Of a stretch of DNA of 16,682 bases, positions 1-6,741 are shown in pieces (position 1 is the stretch's first letter; each line of letters opens with the position of its first letter). Under the pieces are notes generated by a model that was not told where the DNA came from, did not search any database, and saw nothing but the letters and a program-made list of their open reading frames with translations. The stretch is taken from UHGV virus genome UHGV-0178820; one strand, given 5' to 3'. Both the position numbers and the translations under genes were made by a program. The stretch is from a virus.

Positions 1-61
1 GGCTAATTTCCATCGTTGCAATTTATCCGCGTCAGACGGTGAATTTTTTCTATTTGTGGGG

Positions 62-82
62 TAGTGATCAATTCTGGGCGGA
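62..82. repeat. Left-end repeat copy 1 (TAGTGATCAATTCTGGGCGGA); candidate transposase-binding site
   Basis: Shares ATTCTGGGCGGA (71-82) with copy 2 (145-156), both preceded by TAGTG; position about 300 bp beyond the repressor gene 3' end, as expected for an attL binding site. Confidence 0.45.
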
Positions 83-137
83 GTTAGTGCAGCCTGGTAG
101 AACCAGCAAGCCTTGTGTGGCGCGGGGTGTGGTGATT

Positions 138-156
138 TAGTGTGATTCTGGGCGGA
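138..156. repeat. Left-end repeat copy 2 (TAGTGTGATTCTGGGCGGA); candidate transposase-binding site
   Basis: Direct repeat of copy 1; 12-nt exact core ATTCTGGGCGGA. Confidence 0.45.
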
Positions 157-196
157 TTTGTGAGAAATGACCAAAAACGCTTTTTTTTGCGCTTTT

Positions 197-205
197 TTCT
201 GGGCG
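197..205. repeat. Left-end repeat copy 3 (TCTGGGCG core) within a run of CGCTTTT repeats
   Basis: TCTGGGCG at 198-205 is the third copy of the core; flanked by three (A/G)CGCTTTT units at 178-213. Confidence 0.3.
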
Positions 206-366
206 CTTTTGATCTGGTTCTGCTACAAACTTAACGGGTTTTAAATGCTTTTAAAAAAGTGTTTTATCCTTACCCGTTTTCCTCAATTTGTTCTCATCTG
301 TGTGTTCGGTTTTGTTGTGGTTATTGCTGATTAGCTAACAGCACACGCCCCGCCAAAACGAGGCGC

Positions 367-1182: not shown

Positions 1183-1419
1183 ATGATGGTTAGAAATGAA
1201 GTAATGAACAAAGACTGGCACCGCGAGTACATCGTTGCCGCTGTGCACACCAAAGGTTTTACATTGCGTGAACTTTCTGAACGCGCTGGTCTAAAAAAAG
1301 ACTCTTTAAAAAATGCACTGTATCGCTCATGCCCTAAATATGAACGCATCATAGCCGATGCTATTGGTGTGGAACCTGCGGAGATCTGGCCAAGCCGGTA
1401 TGCCAGTAAGGCGGCGTAA
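1183..1419 (+). CDS. ner: Ner-like DNA-binding transcriptional regulator
   Basis: Small ORF immediately upstream of the transposase with TAATG stop/start overlap at 1417-1421. C-terminal ...IIADAIGVEPAEIWPSRY... resembles the Mu Ner C-terminus (recalled). Start at ATG 1183 chosen for the AAGGG SD-like motif 7 nt upstream; ATG 1204 is an alternative. Confidence 0.8.
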   Translation: MMVRNEVMNKDWHREYIVAAVHTKGFTLRELSERAGLKKDSLKNALYRSCPKYERIIADAIGVEPAEIWPSRYASKAA

Positions 1420-3461
1420 TGTTTTATTCAGCCAATGAGCTGGCCGGTCTTCCTGGTTTGCCCGGTACAGTTCAGGGGGTGCGCTGGACGCTCAATCGGA
1501 TCACAGAGACGCACCCGGAATGGAAGCGCAAGCGTGAAGGCACCAAAGCATTCGAGTATCACATCGACTGCCTGCCCGCTGAAGCGCAGAAAGTTTTACG
1601 TAAGCGCCTGACCCATCAGGTCCTGGAAGATACGCAACTGCCCGCCGTGGTTGAGCAGAAGGCAGTTAAAAACGTCGCCGTTCGCGATGAACTGGAGGTG
1701 ATGGTCAAATGCCCGGAACTGGCATTACGCGAAGTCCAGGCACTGACTGACAAGCAAAAGGCCATCGCTGATGCGCGGATATTGCTGGCTACTGAAGTGC
1801 ATAAACTGCGCGAATACGCCGGAATGACCAGGAAGGCCGCGTTAAAGCACATCGTTGATGGTGTGCGCATGGGGGCGTTACCTGACCGCATTATCGAAGC
1901 AGCTAATACTGCAAATGCACGTCAGGGAAAGCGAACCGGTGTCAGCACCGGCAGCCTGGATAGCTGGTACTCCAGCTGGGTGATGGCGCGCGGTGATGCC
2001 AATCAGTTACTGGCGTTACTGGCTCCCGGTCATCATAAGGGAACACCGTGGGAGCAGGTCTGGTGGTTGAGCGATTTCTTTATGTTCTATCGCTCATGGA
2101 AGCGCCCGACCGTTGAATATGCGTATCGTGAGTTTTCAGCCTGGTGGCATGAAAAACACGCGAATGATGCGGGAATGCTGGCAGCACTGCCTTCAGTTCA
2201 CGCAGTAAGACGGGTGTTAAGCAACGTCCCGGTGATTGTTAAAGAGCGTTTCCGCTCCACCGGTTCAGCCTGGCGTTCGCTCAATCCCTTTGTGCGGCGC
2301 GACTGGAGCACATTACCGGTTAATGCGGTATGGGTCGGGGATGGTCACTGTATGAAAATGACCGCGTTTAACCCCCTTACCGGCAACATTTTCCGACCTG
2401 AAGTGACGCTGGTTATGGATGCAGGGCAGCGCTTTGTTGTGGGCTGGTCACTGTCCCTGTCGGAGAACGTGATAGCTGTTGCTGATGCGTTGCGTTACGG
2501 CATGGCACAGCACGGGATACCGCTGATTTATTACTCCGATAACGGGGGCGGCGAAAAAAACCGGGTGCTTGATGCCGATATTACCGGGATTCTGCCCCGT
2601 CTGGGTGTGGAACATCACACGGGGATACCAGGTAATCCGCAGGGGCGCGGGGTGATTGAGAGGCTTAACAAGGAAATTCCCCGGGATGTGGCCCTGAGTT
2701 TCCGGACGTACTGCTCAAAAGGAGCAGACAAGGAAACCGTAATGATGCAGCAACGGATTATGCAGTCAGCCATTAAGGCCACCCACAAAGGGAAAGAGCT
2801 GACAAAACGGCAGGTTAAGGCAAGGGATGAAATCCCCACCTTTGAGCAACTGATGGCAGCTATAGAGCTGGAGGTCAGACGCTATAACAACCGGCCACAC
2901 AGCAGCCTTCCTCGCAAAGAGGATGGCGAATATTACAGCCCGGCAGCGTATCGCCGGAAACTGATAAAAGAGCAGAATGTTGAAATTGATTTCCTGTCGC
3001 CGGAAGAACTGCATGAAATGTTCAGGCCGGAAGTGACGCGCAAAACATTTCGCGGGGAAATTCAGTTATTCAACAATATTTATTACTCGTATGAGCTGGC
3101 CGCAGAGCACGGGAATGAAGTCAGGGTCAGTTACGATATTCATGATGCAAACAGTGTCATTGTCCGGCGGGCTGATGGCTCTTATATCTGCGATGCCATC
3201 TGGAACGGTAACAAGGTTGATGCCTTCGCTAAACCAGTTATCGAACAAAAACTGGAGAAACGCGTCAAGGGCCGCATTGCACGGGCCACGCAGAAAATCG
3301 AAGAGGCTAAACGCGAGCTTACCCCGGCTATTACGCAGAAGCCTGAGTTTAATCTGGGATATGGACTGGAACGCCAGGAGAAAAAGGAAAAAGAAGAACT
3401 TTATTTATTCGTGTCTGACCGTGAGCGCAATTTAAAGAAAAACGGCACAAATAATCGTTAA
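1419..3461 (+). CDS. A: DDE transposase, MuA-like (680 aa)
   Basis: Size and position as Mu A; candidate DDE catalytic motifs VWVGDGH, YYSDNGGGE and a downstream acidic region; basic C-terminal tail; N-terminal LPGLPGT..GV motif typical of the MuA/repressor DNA-binding domain. Confidence 0.9.
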   Translation: MFYSANELAGLPGLPGTVQGVRWTLNRITETHPEWKRKREGTKAFEYHIDCLPAEAQKVLRKRLTHQVLEDTQLPAVVEQKAVKNVAVRDELEVMVKCPELALREVQALTDKQKAIADARILLATEVHKLREYAGMTRKAALKHIVDGVRMGALPDRIIEAANTANARQGKRTGVSTGSLDSWYSSWVMARGDANQLLALLAPGHHKGTPWEQVWWLSDFFMFYRSWKRPTVEYAYREFSAWWHEKHANDAGMLAALPSVHAVRRVLSNVPVIVKERFRSTGSAWRSLNPFVRRDWSTLPVNAVWVGDGHCMKMTAFNPLTGNIFRPEVTLVMDAGQRFVVGWSLSLSENVIAVADALRYGMAQHGIPLIYYSDNGGGEKNRVLDADITGILPRLGVEHHTGIPGNPQGRGVIERLNKEIPRDVALSFRTYCSKGADKETVMMQQRIMQSAIKATHKGKELTKRQVKARDEIPTFEQLMAAIELEVRRYNNRPHSSLPRKEDGEYYSPAAYRRKLIKEQNVEIDFLSPEELHEMFRPEVTRKTFRGEIQLFNNIYYSYELAAEHGNEVRVSYDIHDANSVIVRRADGSYICDAIWNGNKVDAFAKPVIEQKLEKRVKGRIARATQKIEEAKRELTPAITQKPEFNLGYGLERQEKKEKEELYLFVSDRERNLKKNGTNNR

Positions 3462-3479: not shown

Positions 3480-4373
3480 ATGAGTTTAATTACGCAATTA
3501 AATGACGTAATGGCCCGTCGCGGCTTTACGCAGACCCACGTTGCCCGTGCTATTGGTCGTAGCAGCGCCGTTATTAACCAGTATTTGCAGGGTAAATATC
3601 AGGGCGATATGGCTGATATTGAAGAACGCATTTCTGCCTTTGTGACCCGTGAATGGGAAAAGGAAAACAACCGCCGTATTAAAGTGCGATTTGTCACCAC
3701 CGGCATGGCCGCCAAAGGGCTGGAGGTGCTGACCTACGCCCATCTGGAGTGTGATATTTGCGTGCTGTATGGCGCGGCGGGTCTGGGTAAAAGCATGATT
3801 CTGAGTGAGTATGCTGCCAGAAACCGAGATGTAGTGCTCATTGAAGCCGATATTGGCTATACGGCCAGAAAGTTACTCGATGAACTGTGCCGTCAGCTGG
3901 GTATAAAGGTTCACGGCGATATTCGCGAGAAGATTGATGCCTGTGTGCGTGAACTGCGTGGGTCAGGTCGTCTGCTGATGGTGGATGAGGCTGAACTGCT
4001 CCCCTATCGTGCACTGGAGGTATTGCGCCGTCTGCATGACAAAGCGGGTATCGGGATTGTCCTGGCGGGTATGCCTCACCTTCTGATTAACCTTAAGGGC
4101 CGTTGTGGTGAGTTCGCTCAATTATACAGCCGCGTGGCGCTGGCGCTTAACCTGGGCGATACGCTGACGCAGGAAGATTTTAACAAGATTGCCACAGACA
4201 TGATGCCGGAAGCGGCAGACCCGGAAATTGGTGAGGCACTTTACACACGTTCGCTGGGCAATGCCCGTCGTCTGTTCAAGCTGGCGCGCGGTGTGTACCG
4301 GATTTGTGATATCAGCGATGCACCGGTCAGTGTGCAGGCCATTGATAAATATTCAGAAATGTTAATTCACTGA
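3480..4373 (+). CDS. B: MuB-like AAA+ ATPase / target DNA activator
   Basis: Immediately downstream of A; N-terminal HTH-like segment (FTQTHVARAIGRSSAVINQYLQG); Walker A GAAGLGKS; Walker B-like LLMVDEAE; about 300 aa as in Mu B. Confidence 0.9.
   Translation: MSLITQLNDVMARRGFTQTHVARAIGRSSAVINQYLQGKYQGDMADIEERISAFVTREWEKENNRRIKVRFVTTGMAAKGLEVLTYAHLECDICVLYGAAGLGKSMILSEYAARNRDVVLIEADIGYTARKLLDELCRQLGIKVHGDIREKIDACVRELRGSGRLLMVDEAELLPYRALEVLRRLHDKAGIGIVLAGMPHLLINLKGRCGEFAQLYSRVALALNLGDTLTQEDFNKIATDMMPEAADPEIGEALYTRSLGNARRLFKLARGVYRICDISDAPVSVQAIDKYSEMLIH
4354..4373. repeat. 20-bp perfect direct repeat, copy 1 (CAGAAATGTTAATTCACTGA), spanning the 3' end and stop codon of B
   Basis: Identical 20-mer recurs at 4727-4746; the two copies bracket the 4387-4719 ORF. 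Confidence 0.95.
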
Positions 4374-5242: not shown

Positions 5243-5887
5243 ATGACGACTGAAAATAAAGTTAAGCAATACACGAAAACTCAAGCGCCTGAAGGTTACT
5301 GGGTGGATGCCCGTGGCGTAATGACACCTGAAAGCCTTATCAAAGATATTGACCGCGACCGCGAGCAGCTGGTCGGTGAGCTTGTGGAGATGGTGATTGC
5401 TGCCTCCGCCTCACTGCGGGAACTGAAACTGCGTGCGTTTGGTGATATCCAGGCATTTATTGACCTGTCGGCGGAGAAATACGGCGCTGTGAAAGGCGGC
5501 AAAAAAGGCAATATCACGCTTTACAGCTTTGACGGACGCTACAAGATTCAGCGCGCCATGCAGGACCGTATCGCGTTTGATGAGCGCATCCAGACCGCGA
5601 AATCGCTGATTGATGATTGCCTGGCTGACTGGACGGAAGGCGCACGACCTGAAATTAAAGCCATCATCAGTGAGGCATTCAGCACGGACAAGGAAGGCAA
5701 CATCAACACCGGGCGCGTTCTGGCCCTGCGTCGCCTGGAAATTGAGGACGAACGCTGGAATAACGCTATGACGCTGATTGGTGAAGCCGTCCAGGTGATT
5801 GGCAGCAAGAGCTATATTCGTGTGTATGAGCGCGTTGGTGATTCTGATGAATACCGCGCAATCCCGCTTGATATTGCAGGGGTTTAA
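5243..5887 (+). CDS. Conserved Mu-like phage early protein, DUF3164-like (214 aa)
   Basis: ORF with GAGGT 9 nt upstream; size and early-region position match proteins recalled as DUF3164 in Mu-like prophages. Assignment is from memory and needs a profile search. Confidence 0.6.
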   Translation: MTTENKVKQYTKTQAPEGYWVDARGVMTPESLIKDIDRDREQLVGELVEMVIAASASLRELKLRAFGDIQAFIDLSAEKYGAVKGGKKGNITLYSFDGRYKIQRAMQDRIAFDERIQTAKSLIDDCLADWTEGARPEIKAIISEAFSTDKEGNINTGRVLALRRLEIEDERWNNAMTLIGEAVQVIGSKSYIRVYERVGDSDEYRAIPLDIAGV

Positions 5888-5888
5888 C

Positions 5889-6122
5889 ATGCATCAGGAT
5901 ATAAAAGAGTACAGGGCCGGAAATAGTTGCGCGGCGTATTCGCTGGGCGCGTCCAGAGCAGAACAACGCGGCGATTATGACGAGGCAGAAAAACTGTGGC
6001 GCAAGGCAGCGCAAAGCCCGTGTAGCACCCTGCGCCGCATCTGGGCTGAACACCGGGCACAGTTCTGTGCCAATGCTCACCTGAAAGGATGGAGGCCGCA
6101 TCATGAACGCGAAGAACTTTAA
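5889..6122 (+). CDS. Small protein, possibly ANR-family regulator-like (77 aa)
   Basis: ATG at 5889 two nt after the stop of the preceding gene; GGGG SD-like motif upstream. Family call is a weak recollection. Confidence 0.5.
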   Translation: MHQDIKEYRAGNSCAAYSLGASRAEQRGDYDEAEKLWRKAAQSPCSTLRRIWAEHRAQFCANAHLKGWRPHHEREEL

Positions 6123-6294
6123 TCAGCTATATCCGGTGGGGACTCGTTTTACACATACCGACAGCGCAGTGTTTGGTTGTGGTCGTGTGGTGAAAACTGT
6201 TGCGCCAGCCAGAGATTTTAAATGTGGTTGTGTGGTTGAAATTAATGTCGAGCCTTATTTCGTAAAAGTCGAAACACTGAAAGCACCGCATTAA
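6103..6294 (+). CDS. Hypothetical small protein (63 aa)
   Basis: GGAGG 7 nt upstream of ATG 6103; overlaps the 3' end of the previous gene by 20 nt in another frame. Confidence 0.55.
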   Translation: MNAKNFNQLYPVGTRFTHTDSAVFGCGRVVKTVAPARDFKCGCVVEINVEPYFVKVETLKAPH

Positions 6295-6323
6295 TTTAAT
6301 TCGTTTTTAATTGTTATTTAAAA

Positions 6324-6357
6324 CAGGCGTAAACCCGCCGGGGCTGGCTTACGCCTG
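6324..6357 (-). terminator. Hairpin (9-bp stem CAGGCGTAA / TTACGCCTG) acting as a probable intrinsic terminator for the leftward 6435-6653 gene
   Basis: Perfect 9-bp inverted repeat with a GC-rich 16-nt loop that may pair internally; on the minus strand it is followed by a T-rich tract (complement of 6300-6323). It lies between convergent gene ends. Confidence 0.55.
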
Positions 6358-6434
6358 AATCTGAGGAAGTTTATTTATGAATATCGCTAAGCAAAAAAAA
6401 TTCGCCCGCGAAATTAATCTGACAATCGTTTGTT

Positions 6435-6653
6435 TTAATCGTCTTGCGACCAGTTCTCAATCGACAGCAGATGTTCATCCAGCGCCGCAGCCAGAACGAA
6501 CTCCCCACGTTCCTGAAGGCCGTGCTGGAAGTTGCGTAATTCAGAATCCAGGGCGCTGAGGTTCAGACAGCCATTTTCTGAAAGCTGTTTAACCAGAAAG
6601 CTCCACGCAGCTTTGTTAGCAGTAATTGCTGCCGCAATTTCATCATCAATCAT
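6435..6653 (-). CDS. Hypothetical 72-aa protein, transcribed opposite to the surrounding early operon (moron-like); acidic C-terminal tail
   Basis: Minus-strand ORF with consensus SD AGGAG 7 nt upstream of its ATG (complement of 6661-6665) and a hairpin plus T-tract downstream. Balanced, helix-like composition, unlike the overlapping plus-strand ORF. Confidence 0.65.
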   Translation of the reverse strand: MIDDEIAAAITANKAAWSFLVKQLSENGCLNLSALDSELRNFQHGLQERGEFVLAAALDEHLLSIENWSQDD

Positions 6654-6741
6654 TTTTTAACTCCTGATTGGGTATGTTGGGGCAGCGATTATGACAAGTG
6701 TTTTGTGGTTATAAGTTGATCAAAAACAATGAGTTACAACC

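Follow-up and report, generated by a model that had tools for sequence, protein, structure and literature searches.

The first few hundred nucleotides of the stretch of DNA analysed here (16,682 bp, hereafter the window) contain three short direct repeats lying ahead of a phage repressor gene, and the question raised by this locus is whether a transposable prophage begins at this point and, if so, which protein reads the repeats. The original prediction took the region for the left end of a prophage and likened the repeats to the L1–L3 sites of phage Mu. Positions 55–218 very probably constitute the left end (attL) of a Mu-like transposable prophage inserted in the yegX gene of E. coli, with the three direct repeats as its L1, L2 and L3 sites, at which its own MuA-like DDE transposase would dock; binding of the protein is predicted from sequence. 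Repeats serving as transposase docking sites are an ordinary feature of Mu-like phages, and the understanding of Mu-type transposition is unchanged by these results, which provide exact boundaries and likely cis-acting sites for a Mu-like prophage family of E. coli.

Left terminus and sibling prophages

The first 54 nucleotides of the window (1–54, + strand) are host DNA from the interrupted yegX gene, which encodes a glycoside hydrolase of family 25, and they match yegX at 100% identity in over 4,600 complete E. coli genomes. In the empty gene, ...ttctatt is followed directly by cgacagc, so that host DNA stops at position 54 of the window. The phage must therefore start with the TG at 55–56, within the interval 55–58 to which the terminal dinucleotide had been assigned, and the comparison with an uninterrupted host locus, proposed as a check, fixes the junction at 54/55. 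This TG opens the heptamer TGTGGGG (55–61, + strand), and the same terminus is found behind unrelated DNA in sibling insertions: 12 independent insertions (seven in E. coli genomes, four on IMG/VR contigs and the window itself) start with TG at the position equivalent to 55, and the twelve flanks are all different. The heptamer also shows no variation in relatives from Serratia, Sodalis, Pantoea, Yersinia and Salmonella. By extension from the sibling insertions, TATT at 51–54 is predicted to be the left copy of a 4-bp target duplication.

The first 3.5 kb of the window recurs, at 89–98% identity and at different loci, in 33 of 5,426 complete E. coli genomes, none of which is identical to the window (best match 98.4%). 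The loci occupied by these siblings include mhpT, eutC (in EPEC strain E2348/69), hyfB, an RHS gene, a molybdopterin oxidoreductase gene, the trg-ydcA spacer and agaF-agaE, and this scatter is the behaviour of a transposable phage. The family is thus present in about 0.6% of complete E. coli genomes, including that of the reference EPEC strain E2348/69, in which eutC is disrupted, and, when clustered at 90% identity, its transposase falls in a group of 1,450 sequences. The ends are shared by seven complete insertions and read 5'-TGTGGGGTAG...CGCGAAGTTACA-3' (in short TGTGGGG...GTTACA, or TGTGGGG...GAAGTTACA), and the left terminus can be read in five more junctions, those of the four IMG/VR contigs and the window. 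The element is 35,656 bp long in strain CFS3292, and a length of 35,736 bp was computed for E2348/69. A sensitive blastn search of 50,697 phage records with positions 1–1500 of the window gave a match only in the ner region of two Yersinia phages, with the left end in none of the records.

One sibling, the 89.5%-identical STEC316 prophage, can be aligned with the window from the terminus to just past the third repeat (about 218), and the functional left-end block is delimited near this point, at 55–218 (+ strand), because the similarity stops there. The joint is a sharp mosaic one: nothing is shared between positions 218–366 (approximately) of the window and 391–556 of the sibling, and similarity resumes only in the repressor region.

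The right end lies beyond the window and is seen only in sibling prophages 89–98% identical to it. A search of metagenome and viral contig collections for the window's own right junction (CGCGAAGTTACA, a gap of 0–10 nt, then CGACAGC...) and for its exact left junction returned no match; the right junction is predicted to read ...CGCGAAGTTACA followed by TATTCGACAGCAATTC. In two of the siblings, the right end (34802–35856 and 5506–6671) carries the remnant of a tail-fibre invertible segment resembling the e14/pin region present in most E. coli. The recombinase gene of this segment has been reduced to a 93-nt pseudogene in the siblings, so the segment is probably frozen in one orientation.

Repeats at both ends and their counterparts in relatives

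The repeats are located exactly where they had been reported. A 12-mer, ATTCTGGGCGGA, is present on the + strand at 71–82 and 145–156, and the octamer TCTGGGCG, identified by a repeat finder as a single family with three direct copies, occurs at 73–80, 147–154 and 198–205, with start-to-start steps of 74 and 51 bp that agree with the approximate spacings first proposed. The resulting sites, all on the + strand, are L1 (58–82; 22-mer GGGGTAGTGATCAATTCTGGGC), the terminal putative transposase-binding site, with its core TCTGGGC(G) at 73–80 (nt 19–25 from the terminus); L2 (132–156; 22-mer GTGATTTAGTGTGATTCTGGGC), with its core at 147–154, 74 bp past that of L1; and L3 (183–207; 22-mer TTTTTTGCGCTTTTTTCTGGGC), with its core at 198–205, a further 51 bp along. 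The TAGTG said to precede the first two copies is indeed there, at 62–66 and 138–142, but it does not keep a fixed distance from the core (4 nt in one case and 2 nt in the other). The third copy lies, as described, amid CGCTTTT repeats, which begin at 178, 190 and 204. A T-rich region with such additional short repeats might generate a cluster by chance or through low-complexity repetition devoid of function. However, only 0.59 copies of the octamer are expected per window, whereas three are counted over both strands, all within 133 bp (73–205), and only 3 of 200 shuffled sequences reach three copies anywhere. The motif also recurs at the other end of the siblings, and its spacing is kept across genera with concerted changes in the core. 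A chance origin is effectively ruled out by these comparative data, and we give it next to no credence.

Inverted copies of the motif, which the original prediction placed at the opposite end of the prophage, are present there in the siblings, at the same distance from the terminus. Read inward, the sibling right end is TGTAACTTCGCGTTTTTTTCTGGGC TAATTGGCGCACAATTCTGGGC GGAGAGAGCGCAACCAAAAAGCCCAGAATTGGACG. Counted from each terminus, the TCTGGGC cores of the left end begin at nt 19, 93 and 144 and those of the right end at nt 19 and 41, followed there by an inverted copy at nt 68; the R1 core thus occupies nt 19–25, like that of L1, and the R1–R2 step is 22 bp. When the six end sites (L1–L3 and R1–R3) are aligned as 24-mers on their cores, a strong core, (A/T)TTCTGGGC, is preceded at a distance of 2–5 nt by a weaker upstream half, T-N-G-Y-G. 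A leave-one-out position-weight scan was run over both strands of one 35,656-bp sibling prophage (71,266 positions). The omitted site ranked sixth, directly behind the five training sites, in the case of L3, R1, R2 and R3; L1 ranked ninth and L2, which has a poor upstream half-site, only eighteenth. The end motif is therefore confined to the two ends of the phage, and the six sites are essentially its best matches in the phage.

This distribution bears on the identity of the protein reading the repeats. Their proximity to the repressor gene and the presence of a conserved non-repeat element between L1 and L2 could indicate that they bind another phage protein (the repressor, Ner or a packaging protein), either for regulation or for pac recognition, and packaging of Mu DNA starts from the left end. 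However, inversion of the motif at the far right end, the identical distance from the terminus and the 22-bp R1–R2 step are expected of a transposase rather than of an operator or a one-sided pac site, and no copy of the motif was found in the repressor–ner intergenic region, either by octamer counting in the window or by the position-weight scan of the sibling. We therefore consider recognition by such a protein to be very unlikely, and the transposase to be the probable reader of all six sites.

The same arrangement extends beyond E. coli. Forty loci of transposase relatives were obtained from a scan of one genome per species, and further ones were taken from the protein database. At many of them, the transposase gene is preceded, 1.2–1.4 kb upstream, by a triplet of direct repeats in which the steps are almost unchanged and the core is specific to the lineage. 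Relatives with transposases 45–77% identical to that of the window keep the triplet with a first step of 71–74 bp (95 bp in the Sp18-like phages) and a second of 41–52 bp. The E. coli core of the window, TTCTGGGCG (steps of 74 and 51 bp), is replaced by TCTGGAC/T in Yersinia (transposase 77% identical; 74 and 51 bp), TCTGGAC in Serratia H1w (62%; 74 and 50 bp), ATTTTGCATA in Serratia PL17 (47%; 74 and 51 bp), TTCTGGACT in Sodalis and Pantoea (about 46%; 73 and 51–52 bp) and ATTTGATAC in Klebsiella, Raoultella, Pluralibacter and Limnobaculum (about 46%; 71–72 and 41–42 bp). Salmonella relatives, with transposases 73% and 60% identical, have the TGTGGGG terminus and TCTGGA-type cores. When nine left ends are aligned, TGTGGGG does not vary, and the three sites change their core together. 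Across the lineages compared, the cores are TCTGGGCG, TCTGGAC/T, TTTGCATA and TTTGATAC. Retention of the geometry together with concerted change in the core is as expected of sites read by a co-evolving protein, and these lineage-specific cores on a conserved scaffold neatly illustrate how a transposase and its sites co-evolve.

The relatives also help to evaluate a different reading of the third repeat (198–205), in which it is not a binding site but part of an intrinsic terminator (GCGCUU...GGGCGC followed by UUUU) blocking read-through from yegX or ending the repressor transcript. A scan detects terminator-like sites at 189–206 on the + strand and at 196–173 on the − strand, and the + strand hairpin at 189–206 folds at −8.5 kcal/mol (z = −2.6). 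Its stem is short, however (six pairs), and no such hairpin forms in relatives (−1.6 to −3.7 kcal/mol, z of about 0), which conserve TTTTTTGC upstream of L3 and the third core, in its own lineage version, at the 50–52 bp step from L2. A terminator alone is rejected for L3, given that relatives retain the third core but not the hairpin, and this reading is improbable, if less so than that of another phage protein. L3 is thus best regarded as the third docking site, which may double, in the E. coli lineage only, as a weak read-through terminator at the edge of the prophage.

[quoted passage not shown] Speculatively, and by analogy with the HU-bound L1–L2 spacer of Mu (PMC3145075), this element might be a site for an accessory protein, for bending or for packaging.

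A 4-bp target duplication

The original prediction anticipated a target duplication of 5 bp, and on this point it was wrong. A 4-bp repeat is found on both sides of each of the seven complete insertions (ATTC, CACT, CTTC, TTTG, CATC, TTTG and CCCT). Two were verified against empty sites: when the flanks are joined with a single copy of the 4-mer, they restore uninterrupted mhpT over 82 of 82 nt at 100% identity and uninterrupted eutC over 74 of 74 nt without gaps. A 5-bp duplication was considered and rejected, since a one-base shift of either boundary produces 5 bp in none of the seven and fails in every unambiguous case. A bias towards pyrimidine-rich targets was also considered, on the basis of 26 of 32 bases in the first eight duplications (in phage orientation), and was dropped when four more junctions brought the count to 31 of 48.

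A duplication of this length is not entirely new, as it is already annotated for a relative with a 45%-identical transposase. The depositors of two GenBank records, LC727895.1 and LC727881.1, indicate a 4-bp 'duplication due to insertion of Mu' for an Sp18-like phage. The two duplications are AGAG and CATC; the second, in LC727881.1, is confirmed and unambiguous, and the first (AGAG or TAGAG) is ambiguous on its own. A search of the literature for 4-bp duplications in transposable phages yielded no paper discussing one, and in a paper from 2021 the scar of transposable prophages is described only as a duplication of 5 bp (Mu) or 6 bp (B3) (PMC8705779). Prophage finders and reviews use these lengths as a signature (PMC8705779), and elements of a clade with a 4-bp duplication could therefore be given the wrong boundaries.

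It is likely, although somewhat less firmly so than the assignment of the left end itself, that the prophage of the window and its relatives, including the Sp18-like phages, form an enterobacterial clade of Mu-like phages with a 4-bp stagger (5 bp in Mu and 6 bp in B3), within which transposase and end sites have diverged jointly, so that a scaffold that stays fixed now carries several mutually distinct specificities. If this is true, the clade would supply a series of naturally occurring, orthogonal mini-Mu systems and could be used to test what determines the length of the stagger in DDE transpososomes.

The transposase and comparison with known systems

The left end lies just beyond the repressor gene, as the original prediction held, and the genes that follow are those of a Mu-like early region. 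A CI-type repressor is encoded at 367–1029 on the − strand, its gene being read in the direction of the left end (Pfam Phage_CI_repr, E = 1.4e-5; PHROG 3037 'transcriptional repressor', E = 9e-59). It is followed on the + strand by a gene for a Ner-like early regulator of 78 aa (1183–1419; Pfam HTH_35, E = 1.4e-25; PHROG 769), the start at 1183 being that of the RefSeq annotation of the siblings, by the gene for the 680-aa MuA-like DDE transposase (1419–3461; Pfam Mu-transpos_C and HTH_Tnp_Mu_1; PHROG 310, E = 7.5e-195), the presumed binder of L1–L3, and by that for a MuB-like AAA+ ATPase, an activator of target DNA (3480–4373; Pfam AAA_22 and TniB; PHROG 296 'DNA transposition protein', E = 3.8e-98). 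The N-terminus of the transposase (1419–1620) matches the enhancer/operator-binding domain of Mu (HTH_Tnp_Mu_1, PDB 1TNS), and the repressor is CI-like (Phage_CI_repr) rather than Mu c-like. The repressor and transposase of Mu share a DNA-binding domain; unlike those of Mu, the two proteins encoded here appear to have no such domain in common. Upstream from the ner-like gene, positions 1134–1166 (GGATAACAC-GGCG-GTGTTATCC-GCAC-GGATAAC) form a perfect 9-bp inverted repeat with a third half-site, ending 17 nt 5' of the start codon, and probably serve as an operator for either the repressor or Ner. Another palindrome-like stretch, CTTTCTTTTCATCAAAGAAAGAAAAGAAAG, is located at about 1065–1094.

The transposase appears to be a remote homologue of MuA along its length, including the DDE residues. 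A profile built from 11 relatives aligns with MuA by hhalign with a probability of 97.5%, over 504 columns and with 24% identity. The invariant residues D308 and D374 align with D269 and D336 of Mu, and the invariant E414, in QGRGVIER, was placed by motif opposite the QAKPVER of Mu, which contains E392. A phmmer search with the transposase against the MuA chains of the PDB gave a weak match (E of about 3.5e-4, 4FCY), and the AlphaFold model (mean pLDDT 71.6) has the Mu transpososome 4FCY as its top Foldseek match (E = 3e-15, about 570 aligned columns), with TnsB transposases next. The Mu I-gamma end-binding domain was not detected by Pfam at E ≤ 0.001; the stretch over the end-binding domains is covered by hhalign with low confidence, and likewise in the structural comparison. 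By analogy with Mu, each end site would be a bipartite element of about 22 bp bound by a transposase monomer, the end-binding domains of which would read the two half-sites. The monomers at L1–L3 and at the three right-end sites would be brought together into a transpososome, with the L1–L2 spacer probably bent for its assembly. The subunits at L1 and R1 would nick the DNA beside the terminal TG...CA, and the 3' ends would be joined to target DNA delivered by the MuB-like ATPase; a stagger of 4 bp between the two joins would generate the 4-bp duplication.

The resemblance to the L1–L3 sites of Mu put forward in the original prediction holds for the layout and extends to the right end. As in Mu, the phage has TG...CA termini and three sites at each end, L1 lies at the terminus, and a long spacer separates it from L2 and L3; in the right end of the siblings, the R1–R2 step is exactly 22 bp and the third copy is inverted. 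The same core count, run on phage Mu (NC_000929.1), gives RCGAAA positions of nt 21, 126 and 166 for the left end; those for the right end are nt 21 and 43, plus nt 57 for a copy that is inverted. This end layout of Mu has been described, and HU is bound in its L1–L2 spacer (PMC3145075); the Mu spacer contains GCAAGCCTGTAGTGC. The gene order (repressor, ner, A, B) is also shared, as is a DDE transposase homologous to MuA. The sites themselves, in contrast, are unrelated in sequence (TTCTGGGC here and RCGAAA in Mu), with nothing in common beyond the terminal TGT, and the transposase, about 24% identical to MuA, is remote from it, in line with the divergent specificity that had been proposed. 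The two systems differ further in the left steps (74 and 51 bp here, 105 and 40 bp in Mu) and in the duplication (4 bp here, 5 bp in Mu).

A likeness is also found in the Sp18-like prophages of Shiga-toxin E. coli (Mu_JNE122137 and Mu_JNE082796; LC727895.1 and LC727881.1), members of the same wider clade whose transposases are 45% identical to that of the window. In these records, the Mu-like phage sits within Stx phages (LC727895.1, 1590–40934; LC727881.1, 2674–42649). They have three direct copies at the left end, cores starting 19 nt from each terminus, an R1–R2 step of 22 bp and the 4-bp duplication. They differ in the core (TTGATAC), in the left steps (95 and 52 bp), in the direct orientation of the third right-end copy and in their termini, the left end being 5'-TG and the right end ...GCGCTATA-3' (...TATA-3', with TA rather than CA). 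A further parallel is provided by Tn7 and the CRISPR-associated transposons, the TnsB structures of which follow Mu among the best matches of the transposase model. In these transposons, too, each end has several TnsB sites of about 22 bp, which are spread apart in the left end and crowded together in the right one. Tn7-type elements, which are not phages, depend on TnsA/C/D/E or Cas proteins, insert at specific sites and generate a 5-bp duplication.
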